Below are positions 1 through 13,771 of a stretch of DNA of 14,363 nucleotides, piece after piece (the stretch's first letter is position 1; every line of letters starts with the position of its first letter). The notes under the pieces are model-generated. The model saw only the letters and a list, made by a program, of their open reading frames with translations, had not been told where the DNA came from and searched no databases. The translations under genes and the position numbers were made by a program. Source of the DNA: a virus. Its lineage: Duplodnaviria; Heunggongvirae; Uroviricota; Caudoviricetes. Location of the stretch: IMG/VR virus record IMGVR_UViG_2681813233_000009. The stretch is one strand, 5' to 3'.

Positions 1-20
1 TCTGGATAATGCCAGCGTAG
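1..20. repeat. attL-side copy of att core (direct repeat; may extend left of the window)
   Basis: Identical to 14033-14052; sequences diverge immediately 3' of ...gcgtag (tcgtggcg here versus ggaagtca at the right copy). Confidence 0.7.
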
Positions 21-107
21 TCGTGGCGATTATCCTCATATAAATCAAAAGATTATTGCTCCTTTTCGTCCCGTATTGTTCAGCCGTAACACATTGAGGC
101 TCTCCAA

Positions 108-1463
108 ATGGGACACAAAACCATACGCCACACCATTAAACGTAACGGAATCTATTACGTTCGCTTCCGTCTGCCTGATAACAAGTTTTTCCGTAAGTCT
201 TTAGAGACTGACAGCCACACCCAGGCGCAGTTGCTCATGTCTTTTGCTTCTCCTGTAATCCCTCTGGTTCAACGTGGAACCATTCACCCGGATCAGTTTT
301 GTCAACGTCTTTCTGATTTCAGCAACCGCTTAAAGCAACAGAATGAACACTGGCTGGTTCAACAATTTCTCAGTGATGAACGGCGCAATCTTCAGCCGAT
401 AGTTGTTCAGGAATACCGCGAGGTTGTTGCGCCTTCAGAAGATGAGGAAGAACAAACAGAAGCACAGTCAAAGGATGTGTTAACACTGGCTGGCGCTTGG
501 AATATGTACAAAAAGGAAAAAGCCCAAAACTGGACGAAGGCAATTTCACAGGCCAATGAGCGCTTTATGGAAGTCATGTTCATTGTCGTGGGTGCATCTA
601 AAGATGTAACCACGATTACCAAGCAAGACATTAAACAGGTAATGGAGGTTGTTGAAAACTTGCCTAAGCGTGTTGTACAGCCTTACCGTTCGATGACGGT
701 TCAGCAACTGATCGAGTGTGATGATGTTCCGCCTGAAGATTTGGTTGGCGCTGAGTCTATCCACAAGCATTTGAAGATTTACAAATCGTTGTTTAAAACC
801 TTCCTGACAGACAATAAAGATATTCTGGAGAAGTCTCCGACTGATGGAGTGGTCGCCTCACCATCTAAAGCAAGGTTTGGTGCATATAGCGCAGCAGAAA
901 TGAGAAAGTTTGTGGGGTGGGCGCTCAAGCAGCCTGACGGGTGGCAGAAGTGGATCACTTTGCTGTTGGCGTACACGGGAGCCAGAAGAGGGGAGATCGC
1001 CAAGCTGGAGAAATCACAGATCAAATTTGATGAAGATAGCCAGCGGCACTATCTCCTGATCGCGGAAGGAGGGCAGGGTAAAACCGAGAACGCTACAAGG
1101 CAGGTGGCGATCCATCCCAAACTCATCGAGTGGGGGTTCCTCGAATTTGTAAATCGCCAATGGAAAGAGAAAATCTTCTCGCCTGTGTCGGGTAAGAACA
1201 TGCCGAAGATCGGCAAAGTTTTAGCCGATGTCCGCGATCAGCTTGGTATTCCGTACCTTGATGATTATGGGCAGCGGCGGCTAGTTCACAGTTTCCGGCA
1301 TACCATGATTTCAACCTGTTTAGCAGGCTGGGTTGGTAATCTGGCACACCTGCAACAGGTGGTAGGCCATGAGAAAAGCGGTTCAGGGATCACTAGACGC
1401 TACCTACACACGTTCCCTTTATCAACGATCTGTTATGTGATTGATGGGTTGGGTTGGGAATAG
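108..1463 (+). CDS. int: Tyrosine site-specific integrase (phage integrase family), 451 aa
   Basis: ATG at 108 with GAGG 8 nt upstream; C-terminal catalytic motifs readable in the translation: ...TGARRGEIAKL... (Arg), HSFRHT (His-x-x-Arg), VGHEKSG (His), TRRYLH (Tyr nucleophile); sits next to the att repeat. Confidence 0.9.
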   Translation: MGHKTIRHTIKRNGIYYVRFRLPDNKFFRKSLETDSHTQAQLLMSFASPVIPLVQRGTIHPDQFCQRLSDFSNRLKQQNEHWLVQQFLSDERRNLQPIVVQEYREVVAPSEDEEEQTEAQSKDVLTLAGAWNMYKKEKAQNWTKAISQANERFMEVMFIVVGASKDVTTITKQDIKQVMEVVENLPKRVVQPYRSMTVQQLIECDDVPPEDLVGAESIHKHLKIYKSLFKTFLTDNKDILEKSPTDGVVASPSKARFGAYSAAEMRKFVGWALKQPDGWQKWITLLLAYTGARRGEIAKLEKSQIKFDEDSQRHYLLIAEGGQGKTENATRQVAIHPKLIEWGFLEFVNRQWKEKIFSPVSGKNMPKIGKVLADVRDQLGIPYLDDYGQRRLVHSFRHTMISTCLAGWVGNLAHLQQVVGHEKSGSGITRRYLHTFPLSTICYVIDGLGWE

Positions 1464-1523
1464 CTGTTTATTAATAAAAGAAAAGCATTAGAAATATTTC
1501 CTTTAGTAAGTTTTTGGGTATCA

Positions 1524-1544
1524 TTCGCCCCGTAATGGGGCGAA
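1524..1544. terminator. Hairpin between the convergent int and cargo genes (possible weak bidirectional terminator)
   Basis: 8-bp stem ttcgcccc/ggggcgaa (1524-1531 with 1537-1544), loop gtaat; no clear U-tract on either strand, so function is uncertain. Confidence 0.3.
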
Positions 1545-1555
1545 ATCAAAACTAG

Positions 1556-2578
1556 CTATTCGGAAGTGACTTGGCTTTGCTTTTTTATCGTTCTGGTTTT
1601 CAACATTTCAATCTGGCCAGCTTCGGTTAATGACCAGAAAGTATTCATGCTGCCATTGGTGGTTTTTAAATATTCAATTTTTATCAAACCATATGCCCTA
1701 AATTGCACTCCTATCGTTTTAAGGTCTTGAGAAGATACTTTTGCTGATGTGCCTCCCTTGCCTGCGACCTTTTGAGCGCTTTTGGCAATTGTGTATGATA
1801 CGCTTGATTCAGTATAATATTGAGTGAGATAGGGGGAGATTGAGTGAAAAATATCCTTCCATTTCATTTTCACGGACCAGTGTTTTGTTCCACCGGGATC
1901 ATACCCGATTCGAGGAAAGGTGGACTCACATCTAAATTCAAAATCATCATCAAAGTCAGCCAGATCCAGATCAAGTGTTTGACTAAGATTACTTGTGGCC
2001 TTGGCTAGTTCACTTTTTAACCATTCATTCTCTTTTTGTAAATCAACCATAGCCCGTAAATCAGTTTCAGAAGACGTTAGGTTGGCTCTTACCCATCCGA
2101 TTGCTGGATAAGTTTTCATCGTTTTACTCATACTTAAAGCAACCAACCCGGGTAAATCTTTGGCTGTTGCCCATGTTTTCCTGAGACGATTGGTTGAGGC
2201 CTTCTCTATAAATGCAGCTAGCTTCTCTCTGAGTTCAGAATCTTTTTCAGATTTGGCTAAAGGTAGATTTTCCGGATTCTCATGTACCAAAACAACGACG
2301 CGTAAACCTTTTGAAACTGCGTAATCGAATTCCTTTTCCGTGTAACTTAAACCATCTTCCGCGACAGAGCCATAACGACCACCAATGATCAGCAGATAAT
2401 AATCACAGTCATCAATTACTTTTTTTATGAACTCCCATTGGCCTTCATCGATTGCTGGGAACAACTCCATGCCTGCTGGAATGCAATCCATTTCCATCAG
2501 AGTTTGTATGACGTGTTTTCGTTCTTCTTCTAAATCCGTAAAAGTTGAACTTACGAAAACCTGGTAACGTTTATCCAT
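1556..2578 (-). CDS. Cargo protein, 340 aa, with N-terminal DUF4062-like motif ([16 protein letters not shown]); candidate defense or abortive-infection protein
   Basis: ATG at 2576-2578 (minus) with AAGGGA RBS; uninterrupted 340-codon ORF; visibly more AT-rich than neighbouring genes; N-terminal FVSSTF-DL-EER motif matches my recollection of the DUF4062 family; central coiled-coil-like segment ([28 protein letters not shown]). Domain assignment not verified by HMM. Confidence 0.8.
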
Positions 2579-2584
2579 TTTTAT

Positions 2585-2616
2585 CCCTTAAAAGAGGAAG
2601 GGGCATTAGCCCCTTC
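2585..2616 (-). terminator. Putative intrinsic terminator or attenuator between the small Cys-rich ORF and the cargo gene
   Basis: 8-bp GC-rich stem gaaggggc/gccccttc (2597-2604 with 2609-2616), loop atta; on the minus-strand RNA it is followed by CCUCUUUU, which overlaps the RBS of the downstream cargo gene. Confidence 0.4.
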
Positions 2617-2624
2617 ATTCAACA

Positions 2625-2891
2625 TTAACCAGCGTGACGGTAGGATTCACGCACACCATCACGATAACCATCAGCGAACGCTGCTTGAGGACTTTTGTGG
2701 CGAACGGTTCCCGCCTGGCTATCAGGTAAGGCGGCTAAGTCTACCCAAACCTGACCCGTGCGAGCCAAGCCAGCGCGGTAACCCTGATCGTAAGCGCAGC
2801 CGCAACATTTATGGCGACCTTCACCACCTTGATCGTGAGGTAAGCTGATGAAAAGAGTATTGTAACGGTGTGACTGTTTACAAATGGTCAT
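2625..2891 (-). CDS. Small Cys-rich hypothetical protein, 88 aa (MTICKQSHRYNTLFISLPHDQGGEGRHKCCGCAYDQGY...)
   Basis: Internal ATG at 2889-2891 (minus) preceded by a strong AAGGAG RBS at 6-nt spacing; the longer track ORF (to 3014) has no RBS. GC-richer than the adjacent cargo gene. No family recognised. Confidence 0.5.
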   Translation of the reverse strand: MTICKQSHRYNTLFISLPHDQGGEGRHKCCGCAYDQGYRAGLARTGQVWVDLAALPDSQAGTVRHKSPQAAFADGYRDGVRESYRHAG

Positions 2892-3571
2892 GCAATGCTC
2901 CTTATGAGCGTTCATTTTAAGGTTTACATGATCCTCTTTGCCTGGCACAATCAAGCCGTCAGAAATGAAGGCAAGGCTAAGATTCATACGAGTTTGGCGA
3001 CTCCTATTGGTCATGCTTTGTAAGCCGGGTTCGTGAAAATGAATCCGGTTTTTTTATGCCTAAAAATCAGGCATGGCACTACATGTGGGGGTGGTCAATC
3101 AATGGTGGCCCCACATAGACGATATTCTAGTGATGATTCTTTTCTGCACAAGGGTTGATTTTGACGTTAAATTGAGGTTGTGAAAGGGTAAAAATGCAAA
3201 ACCCTGCACAGCATAAGGCTTGGAAGACATGTCAATGATTAAGAAAAAAAAATCAAAATTTGATCGAGTGCTGATTTCTTCAACGGGAGGTCAGAATTGC
3301 GCGACATGATGTCGCGTAATCTTTATAAGAATAATGAATGGCATTAGTCGTTTTTGATGGTCTCTTGTAACATATAGTTAACATATAGATGTTCGTGAAG
3401 GGAGAAAGGCGCGAAAGGTAAATGTTATCTGGATAGTCTACCAATGCCTGTACCAGTACGAAAAGAGCGCTAATCATACCGAACTTAATCTCATAAAGGT
3501 TTTCACGAGAGCGAAGGACGTTAACGCTAGATTGCGAAACGAAACATTTCATTCTCTTCAATCTTTGGGTA

Positions 3572-3610
3572 ATAAAAAAGGCTGACCCGTTAAGGTCAGC
3601 CTTCTTAAAA
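3572..3610 (-). terminator. Rho-independent terminator ending the minus-strand capsid operon (bidirectional-looking)
   Basis: 8-bp stem ggctgacc/ggtcagcc (3580-3587 with 3594-3601), loop cgttaa; A-run 3572-3579 on plus (U-run after the stem on the minus RNA); ttctt follows on the plus strand. Confidence 0.6.
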
Positions 3611-3622
3611 TCAATGTGTTAC

Positions 3623-3811
3623 TTACTTCTTTTGACGCTGTTTAGCGATCATAACGTTAAGCGCGTATTCAAAACCGTGTTGCGATTCCAAACGGCTAAA
3701 CGTCACGTTACACAGGCCCAACTCTCTACACAGTGCTTTACGGTTTACGACCTCCGCCGCGCCAGATACATAGACTTGACCAGCGCCGGGGATATTGATT
3801 GAAACTTTCAT
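3623..3811 (-). CDS. Hypothetical small protein, 62 aa, last gene of the capsid operon
   Basis: ATG at 3809-3811 (minus) with GAGGTG upstream; co-directional with the capsid gene and followed by the terminator at 3572-3610. The overlapping plus-strand ORF 3614-3802 lacks this context. Confidence 0.45.
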   Translation of the reverse strand: MKVSINIPGAGQVYVSGAAEVVNRKALCRELGLCNVTFSRLESQHGFEYALNVMIAKQRQKK

Positions 3812-3903
3812 GTGTCACCTCAAAAATAAAAGTAAAAATGAATATAACCGGAAGAGATAACCCCCAGCCGATACCCAAAGGGCGCGACCGGGGGCATTCT
3901 CTA

Positions 3904-4923
3904 TTACTTCAGCTTGACGTTCAGCATGTAGTTCGGGCGCAGGTTCAGAGGAATGAAGCTCGCCTCTTGGTGAACGGTCACCATGCCGTAACGGTCAGTC
4001 ATTACTTTTTGGTAGTAAGGGCTGATCACACCTTTAGCGGAGATATCCTGATTACGTGAAGCCGGGCCGCGTACCAGTTTGAACGGGTTACGATCCGCTG
4101 CACTGAACTTTGGAACGAACAGGCCGGAACCTGCCGCGATTTCGTAGCGGTCATCGTCCGCCAGAATGAAAGTAATGTTGCCAATGCTGAAGGAGTCATA
4201 ACCCGCAGTGTTAACCGGGATCAGAGCGCCTTTTGCAGCCTCCGCCACTTTGTTGGTGATCAGGCTGGTTACTTCTGGGTGGCTCGCCAGAACGTCATAC
4301 AGATCCGGGGAGCAGAAGCAATAGAAGCGGTCCAGATAGGAGCGGCTCGCGCCGTACTCTTTAACCAACATGCGGCGAATCTTCGCAAGCTGTGCATAGA
4401 CGTTAGCGCCTGCTGAACCGTCGAGGTCGAAACTCAGCGGAGCAGTACCAAACACAGCGTTAAAATCTACGTCGCCGTCATCCGTTTTAGCCGCTTTCGC
4501 TTCCTGCTTGAACAGGGCGCGGGCCAGTGTGCTTTCAACTGTTTCCAGATGATAGTTACGCATACGGATAGCTTTATCAGCAATAACAGATGTGATCGCC
4601 TGAGCCTGATCCGGGTTAGCCGGGCTTACCAGGCCTTGCCAGTCAGCGGTTTTTACATCCGCCTCAGTGGCATAGTGTGGGATCTCCTGGTTACGCAGGA
4701 TGGTTTTATCCATCATGATCGCGTTAACTTCGGTGCCATAGCGGGCAACCTGCTCCAGTTCACTAACCTGAGTTTCCACAATATCCACAATCTGGGCGTT
4801 TGGAGTGGTTGAGTTAACATCGGAGAAGATACCCAGATCAGAGATCAGGTAATTACCTGCTGGTTGATCTTTGATCGCCGCTACAGTGTCCAGCTTTTCA
4901 AACTGTTTAAAATCAATAGCCAT
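3904..4923 (-). CDS. Putative phage major capsid protein, 339 aa (family not verified)
   Basis: ATG at 4921-4923 (minus), AGGAA RBS; starts 12 bp after the stop of the upstream small gene (small-gene/capsid-gene arrangement as in lambda D-E); A/D/S/T-rich composition typical of virion proteins. Capsid assignment is by context and gestalt, not by alignment. Confidence 0.6.
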   Translation of the reverse strand: MAIDFKQFEKLDTVAAIKDQPAGNYLISDLGIFSDVNSTTPNAQIVDIVETQVSELEQVARYGTEVNAIMMDKTILRNQEIPHYATEADVKTADWQGLVSPANPDQAQAITSVIADKAIRMRNYHLETVESTLARALFKQEAKAAKTDDGDVDFNAVFGTAPLSFDLDGSAGANVYAQLAKIRRMLVKEYGASRSYLDRFYCFCSPDLYDVLASHPEVTSLITNKVAEAAKGALIPVNTAGYDSFSIGNITFILADDDRYEIAAGSGLFVPKFSAADRNPFKLVRGPASRNQDISAKGVISPYYQKVMTDRYGMVTVHQEASFIPLNLRPNYMLNVKLK

Positions 4924-4935
4924 TGTGTGATTTCC

Positions 4936-5307
4936 TTATGCTTTGAAGTAATCGGCGTTGATAGCCAGGCGAATATCACCGGAGGCTGTCAGCGCTTCCA
5001 GTGCGGCTTTTTTGCTCGCGGCGTCTTTAGCACGTAGGGCAAAATCGGTAATCACAACATGGCGATCCACGATAACCAGCGTTTTAGTCTTGCCATCGGC
5101 GGACATATTGGAAAGGTTAATGATCGGCTTGCCAGCTTCAGCGGCGGCGGAGTCGAACAGGGCAAAAGTTTTGCTGTCCAGAATATCGCCACAGTAGACG
5201 TCAGCCGGGAGGCTTGGGGCGGTTACTTCGGTGCGGTCAAACAGGCTGGAGGCGTAGTTGACGATTACGTCACCTTGCGTTACCGGGTAGCGCTCGGAAG
5301 TTTTCAT
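4936..5307 (-). CDS. Putative head decoration or capsid-associated protein, 123 aa
   Basis: ATG at 5305-5307 (minus) with AAGGAAAA RBS; the track ORF extends to 5451 but lacks an RBS there; tightly coupled (12 bp) to the downstream capsid gene. Confidence 0.5.
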   Translation of the reverse strand: MKTSERYPVTQGDVIVNYASSLFDRTEVTAPSLPADVYCGDILDSKTFALFDSAAAEAGKPIINLSNMSADGKTKTLVIVDRHVVITDFALRAKDAASKKAALEALTASGDIRLAINADYFKA

Positions 5308-5437
5308 AAAGGTTTTCCTTATGGAGGGTTTTAGACGTGGAGAGAGTCCACAGGATGATCCGGCGTTGCACCGAATATAAGGACCGCCACAGAGGACAAT
5401 CCGAATTGTTGGAAGATGGGAGGCCGTGGATTGAATA

Positions 5438-5467
5438 GAAGAGGGCGGCATCCGCGCCGCCCTTTCT
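5438..5467 (-). terminator. GC hairpin with flanking U-rich tracts upstream of the capsid operon (possible leader terminator)
   Basis: 7-bp stem gggcggc/gccgccc (5443-5449 with 5456-5462), loop atccgc; tttct follows on plus, and tcttctatt follows on the minus RNA; lies about 135 bp upstream of the decoration-gene start. Confidence 0.4.
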
Positions 5468-6551
5468 AATCTGGCTCTCTCTCACCCTCGCGGGTGGGGA
5501 AGGATATTTATCCTTTTGTGTGGATACTTGCCGCCCCTGGTGGCGTCACGTCGAATAGCACCAACCTTTTGGCAAATACCCACAAAAAAGAACCCGGCTG
5601 GAGGAACCGGGGTGGACAATGTAACTTACTGTATGATCACTTGTTTTCCTGTGTAGCCTCAGAGCCTTACATGATTTGCTTTCATGGTTCAGCAAAGAAG
5701 CCACAGAGGAAAACGGGCACCCTGAACGCGCCCGGAAACCATCGACGCAAATCAATAGTTTATCGTTGAGACCAGGTAACCAGCCCGGCCCAACTGTGAC
5801 CCCGTGGAGGGTCGATACAATTGAAGGAGATTCGCTTGTATTCTGAAGAGCCGCAGTTAGCGACGCTTTAGAATAGGGCCTGTGGCGCAAGCACTATGAT
5901 TAGAGGCGTTTTGAATCGTAGGAGTGAAACAATCGGCGGAACTTGAGGAGAGGACCGCACACAAAGCATTCTGGCAAGTGGAGTTGAAAGAACACTTTGG
6001 GTGAGGGCCGGGGCGGGGGAGAAGCCGCCCGGCTCACTCAGTACAGATCCTAATTGCACACGTTGCGACTCTGTACAGGTGGGGGGCGTGACAAGCTGCA
6101 AAACGGTAATTTCGATATCCTCGCCACACCCCACACCATGTATATTAGTTTAACACGAATGATTATCATTTGCAATAAAAATTAATTGCATTGTGTTGAG
6201 TCTTATGATATTGGCGGCCACACACGTGACGGATCAGATCTGCATTAATTTTTATTAGTGAGTGGTCTGACTCAGGGAGGGCTATGTGTCCCAAAAGACA
6301 CACGAAGTAATAATAGATATATAAGACCTCGCTACGCTCGCCCTCCGGGTCCGTCTTATTGATCTTATATAATAACTTCATTCAATAACTAATTGTTTTC
6401 ACAATTAATCATTTCATTCGTTATTATATGATCTTAAAACCTTCTCGCCCTTTGGGCTTACCAGGTTTTAGGCCGGGGCCTATTTCCCCACAATGTAGAG
6501 TCTCGCCTGTGTGGCTCATCTCCCGGGGGGCATTTTGAAACAAGGGTGTAC

Positions 6552-6612
6552 TGACAAAATGTCACAACGTGTTATGACAGATTGGCACAACGTGTTATGA
6601 CAAAATGTCACA
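6552..6612. promoter_or_regulatory. Cluster of dyad-symmetric repeats (operator- or iteron-like)
   Basis: 17-mer cacaacgtgttatgaca occurs twice (6563-6579 and 6586-6602), 6 bp apart; 15-mer tgacaaaatgtcaca occurs twice (6552-6566 and 6598-6612); each unit is itself a near-palindrome (TGACA-aaa-TGTCA; TGTCAcAACG/tGTTaTGACA). Confidence 0.5.
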
Positions 6613-7052
6613 TAATAAGATAAGTATATAAAACACCCTTAAAAGACAAACACCTAGGGCCAGGTCAAGATCTTAAAGAGATTGAGGGTGAATTATTGAT
6701 TGAACAATCAAGAGATCAGACTCTTTAGGAAAGAGCCTTACAGGCTCGCCTCCCTTTTGGGGCAATCGCAGAAACAGAAACCGCAACGCGGTTTTCTTTT
6801 CTGCTCTTTGGGAACACCGGAACGATGTGAAGGTGACATCTGGGCGGCGGGGTGGGGTGCCCGGCGCGGAGTGATACACAGTACAGAACCACAACCCACA
6901 GGAACCAACCTAAACGCGCCTCTGTGGCGCTCTCTCATATGCAGACACGGAAACACCTTATAAACACCCTGCGCCTCACTGAGAGCGTTACAGCGGCTTT
7001 CTATGCCTCTAGCACAATAAACAACTGAGCGCAAGATAAATCAAGAAAGTTG

Positions 7053-7081
7053 TTGCGAATCATTGTCAAATAGTGTAAAAT
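7053..7081 (+). promoter_or_regulatory. Candidate sigma70 promoter for the plus-strand operon
   Basis: TTGCGA (7053-7058), 17-bp spacer, TAAAAT (7076-7081), about 75 bp upstream of the ATG at 7156. Read by eye only. Confidence 0.3.
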
Positions 7082-7155
7082 AGATACTGTGATGAGGTAT
7101 TTATTCGAATATATAGATCCCCATCATACTATAACAAACATGAAAGGAGATTGCA

Positions 7156-7581
7156 ATGAGTATTTACCTCGATGTTGAAAAAATGGTTGAACGTGTCGAT
7201 CAGCGTGACCTGACCCGTAAGACCCTGACAGAAACCCGTAGCCGAATGAAAGCCGCCGGACGTATGGGAGAAGTTGAAGCGATTACGCAGGCCCTTGAAA
7301 TGACCAAATCAAAAGCATCCGGCGTCATGCGACAGTCTCAACGTATCGCTGCAAAGATCACCGAGATGGACGCAGAGAAAGCACTTGAAGTTAAAGCAGC
7401 CGTTTCGCTGTTCGCTTCCAAGTCTACAGACATGCAAGCCTCCATTGTGCTGGCGTTCCAATCCCTCTTTGAGGCTAAAGGCGTCCCGATGGAATACGAC
7501 GAAGTGATGGCTTTTATCATGCTGCAAGCGGCGGATCAGTTTGAGCGTATCACCGGAGAGTTGCCCGTTATCGTTCACTAA
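7156..7581 (+). CDS. Hypothetical protein, 141 aa
   Basis: ATG with AAAGGAGA RBS; first gene of a co-directional, tightly packed gene string; no family recognised. Confidence 0.7.
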   Translation: MSIYLDVEKMVERVDQRDLTRKTLTETRSRMKAAGRMGEVEAITQALEMTKSKASGVMRQSQRIAAKITEMDAEKALEVKAAVSLFASKSTDMQASIVLAFQSLFEAKGVPMEYDEVMAFIMLQAADQFERITGELPVIVH

Positions 7582-7610
7582 TTATTCATTTACTTTTTGG
7601 AGAGGAAACA

Positions 7611-7862
7611 ATGAGCAAATATCAGCCGTATGTTGATTTGAGTGATTCCCCTGTGTTGTCGGCGTATGCACAGCAGACGATCAACCAGTTGGACCCAACC
7701 CTGTACGATGACATTTACGAAATGTTGAAGCAGGTTAGTCCCTCCAAGTTGGTGACGATTGGCAACCCGGCGATCACCGCCCCGGCGTCATGGTGGGGTG
7801 ATTGGTTCGGCCTCAACCTCACCGCTGAAGACATCGCAGAATTACAGGAGATTGATCTCTAA
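7611..7862 (+). CDS. Hypothetical protein, 83 aa
   Basis: ATG at 7611 with GGAGAGGA RBS; its stop overlaps the next start (TAATG). Confidence 0.65.
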   Translation: MSKYQPYVDLSDSPVLSAYAQQTINQLDPTLYDDIYEMLKQVSPSKLVTIGNPAITAPASWWGDWFGLNLTAEDIAELQEIDL

Positions 7863-8041
7863 TGCAGATTGAATTTTCCCCCGAAGTGGCGGATCAGCTT
7901 TTTGAGTTGGCCCGCACAAGGAAGCACGGCTCCGCCTACGCAATCGTAAGAAAAGCAGTTAAGCAGTATTTGGATTCAGTTGAAGCTATTAACCCTGTTG
8001 AAGAGGATTTAACCCATGACCGCAGCACCCGCAGCAAGTAA
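7862..8041 (+). CDS. Small ribbon-helix-helix-like DNA-binding protein, 59 aa (absent from the ORF track)
   Basis: ATG at 7862-7864 overlapping the upstream stop (TAATG); translation MQIEFSPEVADQLFELARTRKHGSAYAIVRKAVKQYLDSVEAINPVEEDLTHDRSTRSK has an RHH-like strand-helix-Gly-helix pattern; overlaps the next gene by 26 nt in another frame. Confidence 0.5.
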   Translation: MQIEFSPEVADQLFELARTRKHGSAYAIVRKAVKQYLDSVEAINPVEEDLTHDRSTRSK

Positions 8042-8681
8042 GCCGTTTACCGCAATCCCGCATGACCTTGCGGACATTGAACAGATCAGCGGTAAGGCGT
8101 TTACCATGAACATGGTTTACACCTACAGCCTGATCAAATCCTTCCAGGACAATGGGCAAACGGCTTATTTCTCACAGGAGCTTTTGGCCCGTCGCCTGGG
8201 GGCATCCATCCGCAGCGTGATCCGCCTCCTGGCGGAGATGGTGGAAATGGGATTGATCAATAGTACCGGGCGCGTGGGTGGCAAGACCTGCCATTACACA
8301 GTTAACCCGATCACCCCGGAAATGGTGGGAACCCCTGAAGCCGCCAAACCTGAAGTAACCAAACCAACCGCAGCACCCCAACCCGTGGAGACCGTAGAGA
8401 ATGCAGGAAGTAACCAGCCTGGAATTGTTAAGTGTGGATCTGAAAGCGTACATAGAAGCCGCCCGGCGTCGTCTGGAGTTGCTCCTGTGGACCACAGCGG
8501 GGGCGCTGTTCGTCCCGCTCCTGTCCCTGTGCCAGTAGAGCAGGGGGCCGCAAACGATGATTTACGTAACCCTGTTATTAATTATGTGGCTGGCTCTAAT
8601 GTGATGATGGTCAACGGTTTGCCTGTTGAATATCTGGAGCCAGAAGAAAGCGGCATTGATCAGTTTGGTGATGCCTTCTAA
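8016..8681 (+). CDS. Putative winged-helix DNA-binding protein, 221 aa (replication initiator or regulator candidate)
   Basis: ATG with GAGGA upstream; HTH/winged-helix-like segment FSQELLARRLGASIRSVIRLLAEMVEMGLINSTGRVGG; Pro/Ala-rich linker and acidic C-terminal tail (EPEESGIDQFGDAF). Confidence 0.7.
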   Translation: MTAAPAASKPFTAIPHDLADIEQISGKAFTMNMVYTYSLIKSFQDNGQTAYFSQELLARRLGASIRSVIRLLAEMVEMGLINSTGRVGGKTCHYTVNPITPEMVGTPEAAKPEVTKPTAAPQPVETVENAGSNQPGIVKCGSESVHRSRPASSGVAPVDHSGGAVRPAPVPVPVEQGAANDDLRNPVINYVAGSNVMMVNGLPVEYLEPEESGIDQFGDAF

Positions 8682-8757
8682 AAATCTGCGATTGATTTCC
8701 CACTAATAACACTCTACACAAAACCCCCGCCGTTTACAACCCTTTGGAGATTCTCGC

Positions 8758-9324
8758 ATGAATAACTTTATCACTACTAAATTCAACGCCTTAACCTCCG
8801 AAGAGGAAGCCGCAGTAAATGCACTGGCGGAGAAATTAGCAGCAAACAAGCCCCGTCGGATTATGGATGAGAGCCATTTGACCCCGGATCAAATCCTGAA
8901 GATCAAGCGGGCCTGTATTCAGGGCCACAGCGCTAAAGCCATCCAAGCGGCCTTTAACGTGTCGCTGGCTTACGTCCTGAGAGTAAAGCGCTCCCACAAC
9001 CCTAAGAAGTACCAGAAGACCCCGCTCACCTTGCCAGAAAAGGCAGTGTTGGCCCAGCAGATGGACGCCGATAATTTGAGCTTGGATAAAATGGCGGAAC
9101 TTCTGGGGATCAACAGTAAGATGGTTTCCCTACTTCTTACCCAACCTTCACCCCGTTACCTGGTGGAGCAAATGCTCCCGTATGACCAAGTTTTACAGAA
9201 CCTCCGCAGCGCCCGCTACGTGGAAAGCCCTGTATACAAAAAAGGGACGAGTATGCGCCGTGTGCGACTGATCGTTTCTGAAGCTCGTCAGCAGGCCCGC
9301 CAGGCAATCATTAAATCCCGGTAA
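8758..9324 (+). CDS. Putative HTH-containing protein, 188 aa
   Basis: ATG with GGAGA RBS 8 nt upstream; two HTH-like segments (LTPDQILKIKRACIQGHSAKAIQAAFNVSLAYVLRVK; LSLDKMAELLGINSKMVSLLL). Function unverified. Confidence 0.65.
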   Translation: MNNFITTKFNALTSEEEAAVNALAEKLAANKPRRIMDESHLTPDQILKIKRACIQGHSAKAIQAAFNVSLAYVLRVKRSHNPKKYQKTPLTLPEKAVLAQQMDADNLSLDKMAELLGINSKMVSLLLTQPSPRYLVEQMLPYDQVLQNLRSARYVESPVYKKGTSMRRVRLIVSEARQQARQAIIKSR

Positions 9325-9495
9325 TTATGTCCAACCCAACGGAATGGGACCTAAAGGATTACTTAGGTTCCAAACTGGTTAAGCGTCAGACAAGACTCTC
9401 TAACTTTCTCGCCCCCTTCCTCTATATCCCCTTTAAGCCCGCTTCCCTCCTCCTGTGGGTAGTGGTAATCACTTTCATTATAAGGACTCTCTCAA

Positions 9496-9870
9496 ATGCA
9501 CCCCTTTGAACTACTGAAACGCCAGCTTGACGAAATGGCGAAATCCCGCCAGGTAGAGCAGGCCCAAGAGGAAGCCGCCGCCCGTGAACTCCGCAAGGCA
9601 CAGGCCGATCTCTCCCTGGACGAGGCTATTGCTCTGTACGGTACACAGTTGGAAGCCTCCACCGATGCAGCAGACAGCGCCCAGAAGGGCCGCGCCATTA
9701 AGAGCCGGGGAATTGCTCTGTGTCACAAGGATCAGGGATTCAGCGCCAACGGTCGCCCTGTGTCTCTCCTGACCAAATCAGCAGATCTGCCAGCAGGTCA
9801 CCGCCGGGTAATCATCAACAAAGCAGCAGGGCGCACCCTGAAGGCTATCAATCTGGAAGGGGCTGAATAA
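9496..9870 (+). CDS. Hypothetical protein, 124 aa, translationally coupled to the tape-measure-like gene
   Basis: ATG at 9496 with AAGGA RBS; its stop overlaps the next ATG (TAATG at 9868-9872). Confidence 0.6.
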   Translation: MHPFELLKRQLDEMAKSRQVEQAQEEAAARELRKAQADLSLDEAIALYGTQLEASTDAADSAQKGRAIKSRGIALCHKDQGFSANGRPVSLLTKSADLPAGHRRVIINKAAGRTLKAINLEGAE

Positions 9871-11990
9871 TGAGCGGTAACGTCATCATCACGAAGACCG
9901 TAAACAGAACTACGTTCACCACGGACGGGGCCAGCTATAAGAAGACGGTTGACCGTATCAAACAGGTGGGGAAAGAGTGGGATAAAGTCTCCTCTAAAAT
10001 GAAGCCTCTACGGATGAAATTTGAGGAAAACGCCTACACCAAGATCCGCCGGAAACAGCAGGACGCCACCGCAAAAGCAGCACTGGCAGAAGCCAAAGCC
10101 AAAGCCGCAGCGGAAGCCAAAGCGGCAAAAGCCCAACTAGCAGCGGAGCGTAAACTCCAGACAATCCGCGCTAAAGCTATTCGCTTTAATACCGCAGCGG
10201 CTAACGCCAACGTTACCCCGGCCCAACGTGCTGGACACCTCCAGGAGTTTGGACAGCTTACGCGCCAGTATCACGCCGGGTCTATGGCATTACAGGAATA
10301 TAACGCCCGTGTGTCACGCCTTCAGCAAACCATGCGCCAACAAGGCCGGGTAGGCATGAGGGGAGCCACAATTCCCGTAACCGCCAAAGTAAACAAACTG
10401 GATACCTCCATGATCGAGGGTGCAGGCGGGGCGATCACAATTGCCGCCACTGTGGCACTCTCCGGCAAGATCATGACTACCGGACAGGATTTTGAATCCG
10501 CTATGTCTGGTCTTACAGCGATCACCGGTTCCACAGAAAAAGCCGGGAAAGAGTTTGATTATCTTCGTGAACAGTCCAACCGTCTGGGGCTGGACCTTCT
10601 GAAAACTTCAAAAGACTATACGCAGTTTGCCGCCGCTGTTGGGGACAAACTCCCTAAAGACCAGATGCGATCCATCTTTGAGGGTGCTTCAGAGTGGGGC
10701 CTTGTTACTGGTGCATCCGCAGATGAGCAATCACGTGCGTTAAAGGCCCTTAACCAGATGATGTCTAAGGGTACGGTCATGAGTGAAGAACTTAAAGGCC
10801 AGTTGTCCGAGGCTCTCCCCGGCTCTGTGGGTCTGTTCGTTAAAGCCCTTAACGACATGAAAGGCGTTACCAACCTGACCGAGCAAGATTTGTTTAAGCT
10901 GATGGAAGACGGGAAGCTGTTCTCTAAGGACATCCTCCCACATGTGGCTAAACAGATGAAGGAAGCGGCCCGGCAGGGTGGCGCACTTGATAAGGCGATG
11001 AAGTCCAACCGGGCATCATGGCAGCGCCTCAATACCAGTATGCAGAACGCTATGAATGTGTTTTTCACTTCTGGCTTCGGTAACTCCCTTACCAACGCTT
11101 TCGACTCAATCAGCGCCGCTATTGACGGATCTGGTGGAGCCTTTGAGATGTTCGGGCATATCGCCGGGAAAATCGTTGAAGGTGCCACAGATGCGTTTAC
11201 AGAGTTGCATGACACTGTGATCCTGACCTTCCGCATTATTGAGTATTACGCCGCCAAAATGGGGATCAGTGGGGAGCAGCTCAAAGCCTGGGGAGAAATG
11301 GCAGCATATGCCGCCGGGGTGGCTCTGTTCGCTGGCTCTGTTTACAAGTTGGGCGGGGCTTTCAAGTGGGTCCTCACCATGCTGAACCCTCTTACCAAGT
11401 TGTTGGGAGTCATGAAGGGGATCGCCGCTATTGGTGGCATTGAGGCCGCTTCTGAAGCTCTGAGCGACGGTAAGCCAGGTAAAGACGGCCAGCCGGGCAA
11501 ACCGGGAACCCCATCAAAGAACACCAAGCCGATCGGCGCGGGCCGTGGCGTTAACTTTGGCCTCCCGGCTATTATCGCCGCTGTATCTCTGAATGACCGC
11601 CTTGATCAGATTCAGGCAGACCCGGAAGCGTTTAAGCGAAAGGTACAGGAGAATAATGATCGGCCTACGCTGTGGACTGACATCATGGAAGCATTCTCCG
11701 GCAGTTGGTACGAAAAGCAGCAGAACGCAAACCAGCAGGCAGCACAGACCGCAGCACTCGATCAGACTGTTCGTGTTGCTGTTCCAACCTTCATCCCTCC
11801 AACCACAGCGACGGTTACAGGTGGCTACGGTAATCCACTGATGACGCCGCCAGCGTGGCTAAACCAGCCGCTAAACGTGAGCGTTAATGTGAAGGTGCAA
11901 GATGGACAGGTGAAAAACCTTGTGCAATCTGAGATTGAACGTAATGAACAGGCGGCATTTAACATGCTGATGCAGGGCGGGCCAAACTAA
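9870..11990 (+). CDS. Phage tail tape-measure-like protein, 706 aa
   Basis: N-terminal Ala/Lys-rich coiled-coil (AKAALAEAKAKAAAEAKAAKAQLAAERKL); central segment LKGQLSEALPGSVGLFVKALNDMKGVTNLTEQDLFKLMEDGKLFSKDILPHVAKQMKEAAR resembles the conserved tape-measure motif as I recall it; hydrophobic Gly/Ala-rich segments; collagen-like GKPGKDGQPGKPGTP; followed by a terminator. Confidence 0.8.
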   Translation: MSGNVIITKTVNRTTFTTDGASYKKTVDRIKQVGKEWDKVSSKMKPLRMKFEENAYTKIRRKQQDATAKAALAEAKAKAAAEAKAAKAQLAAERKLQTIRAKAIRFNTAAANANVTPAQRAGHLQEFGQLTRQYHAGSMALQEYNARVSRLQQTMRQQGRVGMRGATIPVTAKVNKLDTSMIEGAGGAITIAATVALSGKIMTTGQDFESAMSGLTAITGSTEKAGKEFDYLREQSNRLGLDLLKTSKDYTQFAAAVGDKLPKDQMRSIFEGASEWGLVTGASADEQSRALKALNQMMSKGTVMSEELKGQLSEALPGSVGLFVKALNDMKGVTNLTEQDLFKLMEDGKLFSKDILPHVAKQMKEAARQGGALDKAMKSNRASWQRLNTSMQNAMNVFFTSGFGNSLTNAFDSISAAIDGSGGAFEMFGHIAGKIVEGATDAFTELHDTVILTFRIIEYYAAKMGISGEQLKAWGEMAAYAAGVALFAGSVYKLGGAFKWVLTMLNPLTKLLGVMKGIAAIGGIEAASEALSDGKPGKDGQPGKPGTPSKNTKPIGAGRGVNFGLPAIIAAVSLNDRLDQIQADPEAFKRKVQENNDRPTLWTDIMEAFSGSWYEKQQNANQQAAQTAALDQTVRVAVPTFIPPTTATVTGGYGNPLMTPPAWLNQPLNVSVNVKVQDGQVKNLVQSEIERNEQAAFNMLMQGGPN

Positions 11991-12004
11991 CCGCCAATAT
12001 AATA

Positions 12005-12031
12005 AAGGCTCCCCTAGTGGGAGCCTTTTCT
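12005..12031 (+). terminator. Rho-independent terminator after the tape-measure-like gene
   Basis: 7-bp stem ggctccc/gggagcc (12006-12012 with 12018-12024), loop ctagt, followed by ttttctctttt. Confidence 0.6.
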
Positions 12032-12060
12032 CTTTTATACATTTCTAATGTCCTGGCTTT

Positions 12061-12627
12061 TCATAACAGATCCGCTATTGAATATTTATCACTAAAATCA
12101 TCTACTTTGCGTTGTGTGGCCCCAATGTAATGAAGCGTACTGGATAACGATTTGTGCCCTAATGCTTTACTAATTACAGCTATATCCTCCCCATTGTCAT
12201 AACCAATCGTTGGTTTACTCTTCCTCATGCTGTGGGTCGAAAGATTCAGCCCCAGCTTTTCCCCGGCGTAGCTAATTTCCTCATGCAATTTGGAGCGGCT
12301 CACAGGTTTTCCCTTGCTCCTGTGGCTGTCCAACTGTAAGAGGTACACATTATCAGGGTTAGCCTCTCTCCGGGCCGCTATGATGCGTTTAGCGGTATCG
12401 GTAAGCCTCACCCGGACAGATTCACCCGTTTTCTGTTGGGACAGGACAAGGTGATCGCCTTTGATGTCGGCATAACGGATAGAGCGCAGATCCGACACCC
12501 TCAGCATTAATTCATAACCCAATAACCAGGCGTCACGGTACAGCGTCAGCCCCTTGCCCTGTTTGAGTAGCTCAACTGCTACCGCTTTCACTTCCTGAAC
12601 TGATTTACAGCCCTCTACGAAATTCAT
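12061..12627 (-). CDS. Small tyrosine recombinase, catalytic domain only (FimB/FimE-sized), 188 aa
   Basis: ATG at 12625-12627 (minus) with GGAGAG RBS; the track ORF begins at an upstream TTG without an RBS; motifs LRVSDLRSIRYADI (Arg), HSMRKS (His-x-x-Arg), LGHKSLSSTLHY (His and Tyr). Confidence 0.8.
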   Translation of the reverse strand: MNFVEGCKSVQEVKAVAVELLKQGKGLTLYRDAWLLGYELMLRVSDLRSIRYADIKGDHLVLSQQKTGESVRVRLTDTAKRIIAARREANPDNVYLLQLDSHRSKGKPVSRSKLHEEISYAGEKLGLNLSTHSMRKSKPTIGYDNGEDIAVISKALGHKSLSSTLHYIGATQRKVDDFSDKYSIADLL

Positions 12628-13020
12628 TCTGTACTCTCCAGAACCTAACTGTGATAAATTTTTGATCAAAAACAAGCACTTGTAAACGACAAAAATTATT
12701 AATTTTAAGTTGTGTCTTTTTAGTGAATTAAATCGGGTTTAATCGCGTTTAATGGCAGAGTAATGACCCGGCAGGGGAGGTAATGGGCTGTTTATGTGGG
12801 TAAAAGATGGTTGCTTAATGTACTATTACCACAAGACGGGTAAGGTGATTTGACTCCCTCAGTTCCTTTAAGCTACTGTATTTATGGGAAATTAATTATT
12901 GTTTCTTTATGGTGTTGCCTGGCAAATTTTCAGTTTACCCTCAAGAAAAATCCCCATCTTTTTTATTCTCCACATGAGAATAAATTTTGTTTGCAAATAT
13001 CACTCATTCTCAACTCCAGT

Positions 13021-13199
13021 CGGGGCGAAAGCCTTCGCCCCTTAAAGGGCCTTTGTAGGCTCGCTCTCTGTATGCGCCTGTGGCGCTACCACTCTCAACC
13101 CTGTGGGTTTGTATGGCTTGCCACAAGATAACGCGCCACAGGCGCACAGGGGAGGCGGACGCCTCCTGGGTGGCCCGGCTGGGCCACTGGTCCACAGGG
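13021..13199. other. GC-rich structured non-coding segment (multiple hairpins and a paired palindrome)
   Basis: Hairpin ggggcgaa/ttcgcccc (13022-13041); palindromes gcgcctgtggcgc (13074-13086) and its exact reverse complement gcgccacaggcgc (13133-13145); hairpins ggaggcg..cgcctcc and ggccc..gggcc (13150-13185); the only ORFs here lack RBS and context. Confidence 0.35.
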
Positions 13200-13588
13200 T
13201 AAAAGGACAGAATGGTATTGTGTTGTTATTAAGTTGTTGAGATTAAAGGGATGTCTTAGGGGGGACTGTAGTGGAGGAAGGTTGGGCAGGGTTTAATCAG
13301 AATGCAGGTCACTCGGCAGGGAGTGCCCTTAGATATTTGGCGAAAATACACGTGACCCCCCAGGGCCTCAGGTTGAAGGGCCTAGCAACAATATCCAAAC
13401 TCCCGGATATTTTCCCACCCAACTGGAAGGAATCCGCCCCTATTTTCTGTTCGTGTATAAGTTAGGCTGAGGGAGGCTTGCCAATGTACACCCCCTGGAT
13501 TTGGTGATCTGTTAAGTTATTGATTTTGATCGATTTTAGATCAATCATCCGTTGCCGGGATTACCCCCACCCAGACGGATGGCACACA

Positions 13589-13771
13589 ATGAATAACGAT
13601 AAAGCAAACCACCCTAAACACTTCCAATACTTGGGCCGCATGGTCACTGTTTACCCTACATACATCATTATTGACGGTATCAAGATTAGCCGTTCCCGTC
13701 TTTCCTTTGCATTCCAATTGGAATTGGCAAAAGCACTTCGACTGCATGAAGAAAGCGTATGCAGAAAATAG
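13589..13771 (+). CDS. Hypothetical small protein, 60 aa (alternative TTG start at 13520 gives 83 aa)
   Basis: ATG at 13589 with a weak GGA-containing RBS; followed by a strong terminator; no family recognised. Confidence 0.35.
   Translation: MNNDKANHPKHFQYLGRMVTVYPTYIIIDGIKISRSRLSFAFQLELAKALRLHEESVCRK

Follow-up and report, generated by a model that had tools for sequence, protein, structure and literature searches.

A conserved hairpin upstream of the capsid genes of an Enterobacterales satellite lies in a long structured leader that may act as a multi-terminator cis-regulatory RNA

Satellite elements must keep their capsid genes silent until the helper infects, and the known ways of doing so are protein repressors and helper-encoded activators. 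Among the closest described systems are lambdoid late control (pR', 6S RNA, tR' and Q), where the late leader of lambda is about 200 nt long, and satellite P4 (CI RNA, Ogr/Delta late promoters and Psu), where the terminated leader controls the replication operon and not the capsid-size genes, and where the immunity RNA is made from a leader. Late-gene control in the virulent myoviruses of about 150 kb is itself poorly known. Here we analysed a window of 14,363 nucleotides (IMG/VR record IMGVR_UViG_2681813233_000009, Caudoviricetes), in which a GC hairpin upstream of a capsid operon had been likened, from the sequence alone, to the short terminated leader of lambdoid late operons that is read through only when an antiterminator is present.

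The element is small (about 13-14 kb) and integrative, with an integrase, variable defence cargo, replication-type genes and iterons; it holds genes for a decoration protein, a major capsid protein, a 62-aa ORF, a tape-measure-like protein and a phiTE_211-like protein, and no portal, protease, terminase or AlpA was detected in it. Its helpers are likely Vequintavirinae myoviruses, with Certrevirus and related phages such as CR8, CR3, PBES02, phiTE and vB_ExiM as candidates. Carriers of the element include E. coli SCU-316 (NZ_CP054371) and members of Enterobacter, Cronobacter and Pectobacterium. A non-coding block of 1.75-2.07 kb separates its two operons, and one segment, 6294-6375, matches phage records by BLAST. 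A literature search returned no description of the satellite family or of its leader, and the literature searched seems not to describe any family that combines its own capsid protein and a tape-measure-like protein with defence cargo that varies and a non-coding segment derived from the helper. The capsid operon has the same gene order as in relatives:

3574-5307, minus strand: capsid operon, with decoration-like gene, major capsid protein gene, 62-aa ORF and terminator
4936-5307, minus strand: decoration-like gene (Pfam HDPD, 2e-4, below the cut-off)
3904-4923, minus strand: major capsid protein gene (Pfam Phage_cap_E, 1.3e-16; PHROG major head protein)
3623-3811, minus strand: conserved 62-aa ORF
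3603-3574, minus strand: canonical terminator at the operon end, AAGGCUGACC..GGUCAGCCUU followed by UUUUUU

The mechanically called ORF at 4936-5451 over-extends the decoration-like gene, which starts at the ATG at 5307-5305. A sequence search of the 188-aa and 141-aa proteins against the PDB gave nothing useful. Contigs of 13.3-13.7 kb were considered as a free or packaged form of the element, and this was rejected: none of the five checked (L037, L006, L024, L020 and L016) has terminal repeats, and L037 ends in sequence resembling a chromosomal gene.

The hairpin of the original prediction, which we call T2, is present at the claimed place and strand, and the distance of 135 nt to the ATG is exact when counted from the start codon at 5307. 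Its parts, located by terminator scan, folding energies and covariation, are:

5463-5442 (core) and 5467-5437 (extended), minus strand: hairpin T2
5467-5456, minus strand: 5' arm of T2, AGAAAGGGCGGC
5455-5450, minus strand: loop of T2, GCGGAU
5449-5437, minus strand: 3' arm of T2, GCCGCCCU(C)UUCU

On the minus strand the core reads AGGGCGGCG-CGGA-TGCCGCCCT, with 7 G-C pairs, a loop of 4-6 nt and a stem dG of -15.2 kcal/mol, and the extended stem AGAAAGGGCGGC/GCCGCCC(U)CUUCU reaches about -20.6 kcal/mol. T2 thus has the stable GC-rich stem-loop of an intrinsic terminator, and it is the best-ranked terminator-like match of the scan. The window holds 33 such matches against 16.2 +/- 3.5 in shuffles, and a single match taken alone is not significant; it is the comparison with relatives, in which the hairpin is conserved, that shows T2 not to be a product of chance.

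About 25 related elements from Enterobacterales keep T2. Their loci were gathered with a DNA pattern, a first scan of genome contigs with the capsid protein having given none. Over 22 relatives, 95.5-95.8% of the cells of its 12 pairs are paired, as against 42-80% when the partner columns are slid, and between four (alignment A3) and eight (alignment A5) of the 12 pairs have changed on both sides. The stem occurs as GGGCGGC/GCCGCCC, GGCCAGC/GCUGGCC, GGGGUCCA/UGGACCUC and GGCGGC/GCCGCC, the loop differs between clades in sequence and length, and several relatives hold the helix only through G.U pairs, which fit the minus strand alone. Since its pairs change on both sides and its G.U pairs fit only that strand, T2 is a real, conserved RNA helix of the minus strand, and what has mainly been kept is a stable GC stem whose loop and sequence vary. 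The same data bear on whether T2 could act as DNA, be it as a cruciform or a palindrome bound by protein, as a site of packaging or recombination, or as a terminator of the plus strand, where its near-perfect inverted repeat is followed by TTTCTAATCT. This is extremely improbable: the minus-strand G.U pairs turn into A.C mismatches in DNA or on the opposite strand, the unconserved loop and stem sequences argue against sequence-specific DNA recognition, and no plus-strand gene or promoter feeds T2, the plus-strand upstream region being the antisense of the decoration gene.

The flanks of T2 had been described as U-rich, which holds in part for the 3' side, CUCUUCUAUUC, with 5 U in the first 8 positions and a tail score of 2.3, and fails for the 5' side, which is A-rich (AGAAAG). 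The tail of the window (UCUUCUAU, 5/8 U, score 2.3) is U-poor in its clade, that of the L005 clade (UGAUCCUA, score 1.39) is not U-rich, and in three clades (the L004/L016/L017/L027 group) it is U-rich, with scores of 4.2-4.45. What was taken as a U tail is also the 3' half of the lower stem of T2 itself and pairs with the A-rich 5' flank. In the clade of the window T2 is at most a weak terminator, and because the tail is mediocre there and poor in the L005 clade, termination is not its conserved function everywhere.

The transcript that carries T2 would begin far upstream:

5308-6140, minus strand: 5' leader of the capsid operon, approximately 830 nt, non-coding and highly structured
6147-6175, minus strand: P_cap, predicted promoter of the capsid operon, sigma-70-type with extended -10, TTGCAA-N17-TGnTAAACT (-35 TTGCAA, 6175-6170; spacer of 17 nt; TG, 6155-6154; -10 TAAACT, 6152-6147)
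6190-6171: inverted repeat TGCAATTAATTTTTATTGCA, clade-specific, overlapping the -35 of P_cap

All clades, E. coli and Pantoea among them, keep the hexamers of P_cap and their 17-nt spacing but not the sequence of the spacer. No other TGnTAAA[AC]T site occurs in the window, and P_cap, about 830 nt from the ATG, is the only conserved promoter on the minus strand. Intergenic promoters of Certrevirus CR8 are of the same type. Transcription is predicted to start at about 6141-6139. In several clades a second -10-like hexamer (TAATAT, TAATCT or TAGTAT) lies 4 nt after the -10, outside the transcribed region; it was considered as a candidate for the sigma-70-dependent, promoter-proximal pause element of Q-type antitermination.

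With this promoter the leader can no longer be called short, as had been claimed. A short RNA that starts near T2 and ends there, with read-through given by a Q-type or Ogr/Delta-type factor of the element or the helper, would agree with the strand of T2, its 135 nt to the ATG, its first place in the scan and the good U-run of some clades. However, no conserved promoter was found in the approximately 700 nt upstream of T2, P_cap is distant and separated from T2 by two further terminator-like hairpins (T0 and T1), the window has a tail poor in U, and conserved structure continues past T2. Moreover, the proposed search for activators, in which 17 ORFs of the element, including all those taken as genes, were compared with Pfam (ten of them also with PHROGs and ten with NCBIfam), revealed no protein like Q, N or Ogr/Delta and no other antiterminator family, and the probable helpers are virulent Vequintavirinae, neither lambdoid nor P2-like. 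We consider such a short leader very unlikely.

The leader as a whole behaves as a non-coding, folded RNA. Its minimum free energy is -317 kcal/mol (z = -7.1), and consensus folding of 5900-5600 gave -44.6 kcal/mol on the minus strand against -19.6 kcal/mol, with 145 G.U against 2 A.C. In its helices 88.7-89.9% of the cells are paired, compared with 42-55% after sliding, and 12-18 pairs show compensatory changes. A protein-coding gap was considered and rejected: five ORFs of 87-114 aa between 5494 and 7034 have no Pfam matches, and in them, as in the ORFs inside the leader, substitutions are spread evenly over the codon positions and about 90% of indels break the frame, whereas 60-66% of the changes in the capsid genes fall on third positions. 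PGAP annotates no gene in the corresponding gap of relatives, and almost every locus lacks annotated genes there, although one gene caller put a 160-aa ORF in L037. All the family members that were examined have the gap and the leader, even where the capsid proteins are only 60% identical. Non-coding, on the strand of the genes, supported by covariation and reaching from promoter to start codon, the leader has the features of the generic class of conserved structured cis-regulatory leader RNAs.

It matches no family among the Rfam covariance models, including those of the C4/CI antisense RNA, JUMPstart and riboswitches. Across the whole window at E<=1, Rfam gave only a TPP riboswitch at 13976-14072 and a weak HrrF match at 3574-3661, and a search restricted to the leader, at E<=10, returned nothing beyond generic hairpin matches well under the gathering scores; a search for a tRNA or tmRNA remnant found none. 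An antisense action of the leader against the helper was rejected as well, since BLAST of the gap against all phage records, and a sensitive search against the full CR8 genome, returned only 6294-6375, outside the leader.

Two further terminator-like hairpins and a helix that spans one of them precede T2:

5704-5734, minus strand: T0, first terminator-like hairpin, CGGGCGC-GUUCAGG-GUGCCCG (5734-5714) followed by UUUUCCUCUG; found by the scan and as inverted repeat I2
5583-5611, minus strand: T1, best intrinsic-terminator candidate of the leader, CCCGGUU/AGCCGGG (5611-5593) followed by the invariant UUCUUUUUUG (5592-5583)
5511-5592, minus strand: helix 2, in which the U-tract of T1 and the next bases (5592-5571) pair with GGCAAGUAUCCACACAAAAGGA (5532-5511)

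From the predicted start, T0 lies at about 405 nt, T1 at about 530-560 nt and T2 at about 675 nt. The T0 stem varies in the alignments as GGGCGU/GCGUCC, GGGGCG/CGUCCC and GGCGUG/CACGCC, and the U-rich run that follows it makes up the 5' side of an 18-bp helix (5714-5697 with 5660-5643) with compensatory pairs at 51:101 and 52:100. T1, about 150 nt upstream of T2, is the better terminator candidate of the two: its tail has 6-7 U in the first 8 positions and scores 2.75-4.3 in every clade (3.93 in the window), and its stem changes compensatorily to CCCGC/GCGGG in Pantoea L036. Helix 2 has 21 pairs, 95.9% paired, with many G.U and 4 pairs with compensatory changes, and covaries in L036 (GAGUUUCCUC/GAGGGAACUC). 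Because helix 2 spans the U-tract of T1 with compensatory changes, conserved RNA passes T1 and the read-through form is a conserved functional one. The U-runs of all three hairpins are base-paired in the predicted mature fold, and their conservation could reflect structure, not termination. As an antiterminator for T1, RNAalifold paired the invariant GGUUUCCGG with the T1 3' arm (CCGGG); this was rejected, as the change in L036 is not matched, and these pairs never vary because CCGG is self-complementary.

The distance of T1 from the predicted start, about 545-560 nt, together with its quality as a terminator, would also suit a stand-alone non-coding RNA that runs from the promoter to T1 or T2 and acts, for example, in immunity or against the helper, with T2 as back-up terminator and insulator and the capsid genes expressed from a separate promoter, specific to the helper, that lies beyond T2. 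Independent conservation and structure in the 5' part of the leader speak for it, and the leader-derived immunity RNA of P4 offers an analogy. The covariation of helix 2, however, carries conserved RNA past T1; no sigma-70-like or CR8-type (TGnTAAAAT-like) promoter site was found between T2 and the ATG (5437-5308); conservation and same-strand folding extend over the 135 nt beyond T2; and the searches showed the leader to have no extended complementarity to phage genomes. This arrangement is quite improbable, if somewhat less so than a short lambda-like leader, although a helper-specific promoter of some other sequence may lie beyond T2.

Sequence that is conserved and folded extends 130 nt beyond T2, as far as the ribosome-binding site, and T2 itself probably lies within long-range helices:

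5340-5481, minus strand: plausible multi-branch domain around T2, with long-range helices
5481-5475 with 5346-5340, minus strand: outer helix, GAGAGAG with CUCUCUC
5430-5424 with 5353-5347, minus strand: inner helix, UCCACGG with CUGUGGA
about 5429-5404, minus strand: conserved, unpaired, C-rich and G-poor tract inside the domain
5376-5358, minus strand: hairpin AUUCGGUG-CAA-CGCCGGAU inside the domain
5305-5328, minus strand: translation start region (CCCUCC, 5328-5323; Shine-Dalgarno AAGGA, 5320-5316; ATG, 5307-5305)

With conserved sequence and helices beyond it, and others probably around it, T2 does not resemble the 3' terminus of a short functional RNA. Pairing in the long-range helices amounts to 87-97%; for the inner helix a single clade supplies the compensatory changes, the outer helix has none in alignment A5, and a local hairpin at 5351-5337, GUGGA-CUCUC-UCCAC, is an alternative fold, so that a multi-branch domain enclosing T2 is probable from the alignments, plausible but not proven. 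The blocks that flank T2, GAGAGAGAGCCAG, CCACGGCCUCCCAUCUUCC and GUGGACUCUCUCCACGUCUAAAACCCUCC, are nearly invariant.

In the full-leader fold the AUAAGG sequence has an unpaired probability of 0.00-0.03 and is predicted to pair with the start-codon region; this helix (helix 12) is 89% paired across relatives, and the hairpin is weak. The folding model thus suggests a masked ribosome-binding site. A conserved anti-Shine-Dalgarno site was sought and rejected, the best duplex partners differing between clades with no conserved long-range partner. By eye, GGCGGUCC (about 5391-5384) and GGCUCUUCAGAA partly resemble RfaH ops and lambda boxA, but other clades do not keep them and they were also discarded.

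These observations open the possibility that T2 is purely architectural, a stabilising helix of the domain 5481-5340, which would control translation or stability of the capsid message or bind a protein of the satellite or the helper, with no termination at T2. In its favour, the helix alone is conserved while loop and sequence vary, the tail pairs with the 5' flank and is not U-rich in two clades, nearly invariant blocks flank the hairpin, and the ribosome-binding site is predicted to be paired. Against this, a GC stem with variable loop and sequence fits a terminator hairpin equally, the U-run is strong in three clades, and T2 stands in series with two terminator-like hairpins. We hold a purely architectural T2 to be a distinct, if unlikely, possibility.

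Long untranslated leaders are typical Rho targets, and the tract at about 5429-5404 might load Rho, which would stop transcription ahead of the first capsid gene or inside it if neither translation nor an anti-Rho factor prevented this, T2 being a pause or boundary. Just 3' of T2, the stretch 5456-5377 has a C/G ratio of 2.0-2.3 and a mean unpaired probability of 0.50-0.57, among the most exposed of the leader, and even the L005 clade has kept the tract and its richness in pyrimidines. A precedent lies in the P4 capsid-decoration protein Psu, described as an anti-Rho factor (PMC11718236). Yet this is a proposal from base composition, a tract of about 25 nt is short for Rho loading, and the decoration-like protein has no detected similarity to Psu. 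Rho-dependent attenuation appears improbable, although a little less so than a stand-alone RNA.

Taken together, the leader is best read as a multi-terminator structured cis-regulatory RNA with a paired ribosome-binding site that gates the satellite capsid genes, a reading to which we give a probability of roughly 0.45. As the leader contains terminator-like hairpins, regulated read-through is a reasonable model, and a block of transcription at the hairpin until the helper arrives is plausible but unproven. Transcription from P_cap (6175-6147) on the minus strand would produce the leader of about 830 nt and continue into the capsid operon, and the leader would act as a multi-step cis-acting attenuator, with T0, T1 and T2 in series and the paired ribosome-binding site at its end. 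Without a helper, few transcripts would be initiated, most would stop at T0 or T1 and, more weakly, at T2, and those that pass the hairpins would be poorly translated. Once a helper, probably one of the Vequintavirinae myoviruses, has entered the cell, the polymerase could reach the capsid genes through stronger initiation, a read-through factor or both. A far more specific proposal, which we find doubtful, is that the leader is a new class of large cis-regulatory RNA, specific to undescribed Enterobacterales satellites of Vequintavirinae, that would sense helper infection through a helper protein or a modified RNA polymerase and respond by letting polymerase through three terminators in series and ribosomes onto a masked binding site, so that the satellite's own capsid genes are expressed, T2 being one switch helix.

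A long folded leader with serial terminator-like hairpins points to RNA-level gating of satellite morphogenesis, of which we know no described example. With one promoter, three hairpins and two genes, the locus is a compact, testable system for learning how virulent myoviruses of about 150 kb are sensed and exploited.

In comparison with lambdoid late control, the likeness of the original prediction stands in so far as a promoter is followed by an untranslated leader with terminator-like hairpins and then by capsid (late) genes, and T2 does lie on the strand transcribed toward them. It does not extend to a short lambda-like leader: that of the satellite is about 830 nt long, with three terminator-like hairpins and extensive conserved folding, and its first hairpin, T0, is at about 405 nt and not at the approximately 200 nt from the promoter of a Q-type leader. 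Moreover, no Q gene was found in the element, its putative helpers are virulent Vequintavirinae, and T2 is at most a weak terminator in the window. With satellite P4 the locus would share termination in a structured leader as a gate on satellite expression, helper-dependent capsid-related genes, and a decoration-type protein as first gene of the module. It differs in lacking sequence or Rfam similarity and any detected Ogr/Delta or Psu homologue in the element, in encoding its own major capsid protein, and in its promoter, which has a sigma-70 -35, an extended -10 and a dyad over the -35 in place of the dyad at about -55 of Ogr/Delta promoters.

The cis-acting processive antitermination RNAs HK022 put and Bacillus EAR, and classical attenuator or riboswitch leaders, resemble it in having structured RNA in a long leader, upstream of terminators and overlapping them, with U-runs that take part in alternative pairings, whereas the satellite leader has no Rfam match and no covariation-supported antiterminator alternative was found in it. 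Finally, like the PLE of Vibrio cholerae, whose helper is ICP1, this is a small integrative element with an integrase, variable defence cargo, replication-type genes and iterons of its own and a tie to a large lytic myovirus, and like the capsid-forming PICIs (cf-PICIs) it has its own major capsid protein; it stands apart from both in its gene set and in the 1.75-2.07 kb of non-coding sequence between its two operons.

The terminator-like hairpin T2 is best read as a single helix in a long cis-regulatory leader that gates the capsid genes of a satellite element. The features of this leader (the RNA from the predicted capsid-operon promoter, P_cap, to the first ATG) and of the operon behind it are as follows:

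6175-6147, minus strand: P_cap (TTGCAA 6175-6170, N17, TG 6155-6154, TAAACT 6152-6147), supported by conservation
5734-5714, minus strand: T0, terminator-like hairpin followed by UUUUCCUCUG, stem compensatorily changed between clades
5611-5593, minus strand: T1, terminator-like hairpin followed by UUCUUUUUUG
5467-5437, minus strand: T2, AGAAAGGGCGGC-GCGGAU-GCCGCCCU(C)UUCU
5376-5358, minus strand: hairpin downstream of T2
ATG 5307-5305, with AAGGA 5320-5316, minus strand: first capsid-module gene, 123 aa, weak match to lambda gpD (HDPD)
3904-4923, minus strand: major capsid protein (Phage_cap_E), following the 123-aa gene
3623-3811, minus strand: conserved 62-aa ORF, in the operon before its terminator
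3603-3574, minus strand: capsid-operon terminator of textbook form

T2 indeed stands 135 nt upstream of the first capsid-module start, as originally predicted, the ATG at 5307-5305 confirming the distance. Its GC core (5463-5442) ranked first among terminator-like sites in a consensus scan of the window, with folding energies of -15.2 kcal/mol for the core stem and about -20.6 kcal/mol for the extended stem. Since the scan found 33 such sites against 16.2 +/- 3.5 in shuffled sequences, a lone match carries little weight, and T2 was therefore tested against relatives in two alignments of 22 sequences each, A3 running from T1 to the ATG and A5 covering the last 200 nt and taking in the three most distant loci. 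In these alignments the 12-bp helix was 95.5-95.8% paired, compared with 42-80% when the partners were slid; pairs changed on both sides numbered four in A3 and eight in A5, and no shuffle matched the covariation score. Stems among the relatives include GGGCGGC/GCCGCCC, GGCCAGC/GCUGGCC, GGGGUCCA/UGGACCUC and GGCGGC/GCCGCC. Because the sequences share ancestry and the compensatory changes come from three or four clades, the independent events are few. These comparisons indicate that T2 is a conserved RNA helix. A role at the DNA level is unlikely, as several G.U pairs in relatives would be A.C on the opposite strand, which places the helix in RNA made on the same strand as the capsid genes. Neither the sequence nor the length of the loop is constant (GCGGAU, AUGAU, GAGGAA, CGGAUC, UGA and others), which counts against loop-specific recognition of the boxB type. 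Taken alone, T2 is an ordinary hairpin.

The short lambda-type leader originally proposed was not borne out, since the sole conserved promoter on the capsid-gene strand is that at 6175-6147 and the leader is about 830 nt long. The hexamers, spacing and TGn of P_cap are kept from E. coli to L037, the most distant locus whose retrieved sequence extends to this region; the spacer sequence differs, and clade-specific inverted repeats overlap the -35. Conservation is low directly upstream (6200-6290) and high from P_cap to the ATG. ORFs in the leader were rejected as genes, given that the three codon positions change about equally and some 90% of indels are frame-breaking; for the two capsid genes, by contrast, third positions account for 60-66% of changes. 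The 841-nt RNA 6136-5296 has a fold energy of -317 kcal/mol (z = -7.1), and consensus folding of the leader strongly prefers the minus strand, as at 5900-5600 (-44.6 versus -19.6 kcal/mol; 145 G.U versus 2 A.C). Rfam searches of the whole window, and of just the leader at E<=10, gave no match to it. At the far end of the operon, a weak Rfam HrrF match (3574-3661, minus) is not a homologue, with 29.9 bits against a gathering score of 77; its best-fitting part is the operon's canonical terminator (3603-3574).

Among the three leader hairpins T2 has the strongest stem and a variable tail, whose score reaches 4.2-4.45 in three clades (UUUUCUUU) but is 2.3 in the window (UCUUCUAU) and falls to 1.39 in the L005 clade (UGAUCCUA). 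The T1 tail has 6-7 U in the first eight positions in all clades (score 2.75-4.3), and its stem in Pantoea is CCCGC/GCGGG. Each of the three U-rich runs is predicted to be paired in the mature fold: that of T0 supplies the 5' strand of an 18-bp helix showing compensatory pairs, that of T1 together with the next bases (5592-5571) forms a 21-bp helix with 5532-5511 (95.9% paired, four compensatory pairs, covarying also in the Pantoea locus L036), and that of T2 pairs back to AGAAAG, lengthening its own stem. The helix over the T1 U-run shows that the conserved functional RNA reads through T1. This argues against a distinct non-coding RNA that stops at T1/T2, with the capsid genes served by a helper-specific promoter downstream, which we consider very improbable.

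The sequence downstream of T2 is still conserved and folded. An unpaired C-rich, G-poor tract at about 5429-5404 (C/G 2.0-2.3, unpaired probability 0.50-0.57) would suit Rho-dependent attenuation, an explanation to which we give little credence. Alternative folds here are a local hairpin (GUGGA-CUCUC-UCCAC) or two long-range minus-strand helices, outer 5481-5475/5346-5340 and inner 5430-5424/5353-5347, 87-97% paired, which on alignment evidence probably enclose T2 in a multi-branch domain; compensatory support for the inner helix comes from one clade only, and the outer has none in A5. The capsid ribosome-binding site is predicted to pair with the start-codon region (unpaired probability 0.00-0.03) in a helix that is weak, yet 89% kept among relatives. 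T2 may instead be purely architectural or act in translation, though this is less likely. Under the preferred reading of a gating leader, serial premature termination at T0 and T1, plus T2 where its tail is U-rich, would together with the masked ribosome-binding site keep capsid expression off without a helper, the phage presumed to be exploited, and infection would increase initiation, read-through or both.

The surrounding window is a small integrative element, in which the remaining features are:

108-1463: integrase
cargo gene: DUF4062
between capsid module and plus-strand operon: 1.85-kb gap with no real gene
6398-6427, plus strand: promoter back-to-back with P_cap
6777-6795: bidirectional terminator-like hairpin
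7053-7156, both strands: promoter-like sites
7156-11990, plus strand: operon for ribbon-helix-helix and HTH replication-type proteins and a 706-aa tape-measure-like protein
also in the element: short tyrosine recombinase
13976-14072, plus strand: TPP riboswitch (74.8 bits, E = 1.5e-13) upstream of chromosomal thiM, the right-hand chromosomal flank

This architecture recurs in a few E. coli genomes, at rcnR|thiM or beside tRNA-Gly, with a gap of 1.75-2.0 kb devoid of PGAP-annotated genes, and the gap is still 1.86-2.07 kb in loci where capsid-protein identity falls to 60-64%. A pattern built on an invariant DNA block found 24 further loci (three viral contigs, Pectobacterium odoriferum and 20 metagenome contigs); the capsid protein family comprises 44 clusters, all organism-named ones from Enterobacterales. 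The satellite-like family, of about 13-14 kb (window 1-13900), belongs to Enterobacterales and is apparently undescribed, no description being found in the literature searched. It carries decoration and major capsid genes of its own; neither portal, protease nor terminase was detected in the element. The cargo slot is variable (DUF4062 in the window, an ATP-dependent nuclease in L002/L003). The 124-aa ORF 9496-9870 has no Pfam match in the window, and the same-position ORF in relatives matches Pfam Phage_phiTE_211. Pantoea cypripedii (L036, 8384-9766) has an additional decoration and capsid pair near the first that is far more divergent and whose upstream region does not align with the leader; related but distinct satellite types may lie there side by side. 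Three direct repeats of 21-23 nt, period 23 (TGACAAAATGTCACAACGTGT), occupy 6546-6618, where all other clades have different repeats; they probably serve as iterons at the element's origin, or as operators for its own HTH protein (8016-8681). Between them and the plus-strand operon is a second conserved non-coding block (6640-7100, 65-78% column identity), with similar consensus folding energies for both strands.

The tape-measure-like protein has its closest matches in Vequintavirinae, and the capsid protein can be aligned over its full length with its counterpart in Cronobacter phage CR8, at 19% identity. A non-coding segment of 80 bp (6294-6375) shares 80-89% identity with intergenic DNA of Certrevirus phages and also matches other Vequintavirinae; both CR8 copies (138831-138908 and 75381-75464) are intergenic, 145-220 bp upstream of phage genes. 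From these likenesses the element looks like a satellite of Vequintavirinae-type virulent myoviruses of about 150 kb. The segment consists of a core, GAAAGACACACGAAGTAATAATAGA, a covarying stem (AAGAC/GUCUU, AACACC/GGUGUU) and ATCTTATAAT. This helper-derived segment is flanked by two divergent promoters, P_cap and 6398-6427(+), and might bind a helper regulator or mimic a promoter so that infection is sensed. Helper sensing may act at initiation instead. P_cap, the single TGnTAAA[AC]T site in the window, shares its type with the promoters lying between genes of the CR8 structural cluster: TGnTAAAAT occurs 19 times in CR8 against about four expected, once with TTGCAA-N17 exactly as in P_cap. 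In CR8 this extended -10 marks terminator-promoter cassettes between structural genes (e.g. 3072, 12854, 13454, 20435 and 24038; L033-L035).

The original idea of lambda-type late control thus survives in spirit, as regulated read-through, with a changed anatomy, and its lambda specifics fail: the leader is not short, the putative helpers are not lambdoid, and a Pfam scan of 17 ORFs of the element, with subsets also run against PHROGs and NCBIfam, yielded no Q-, N- or Ogr/Delta-like protein to act as the activator envisaged. Regulatory leaders containing terminators are of a kind already known; what sets this one apart is a conserved, structured RNA of about 830 nt with serial terminator-like hairpins before satellite-encoded capsid genes.
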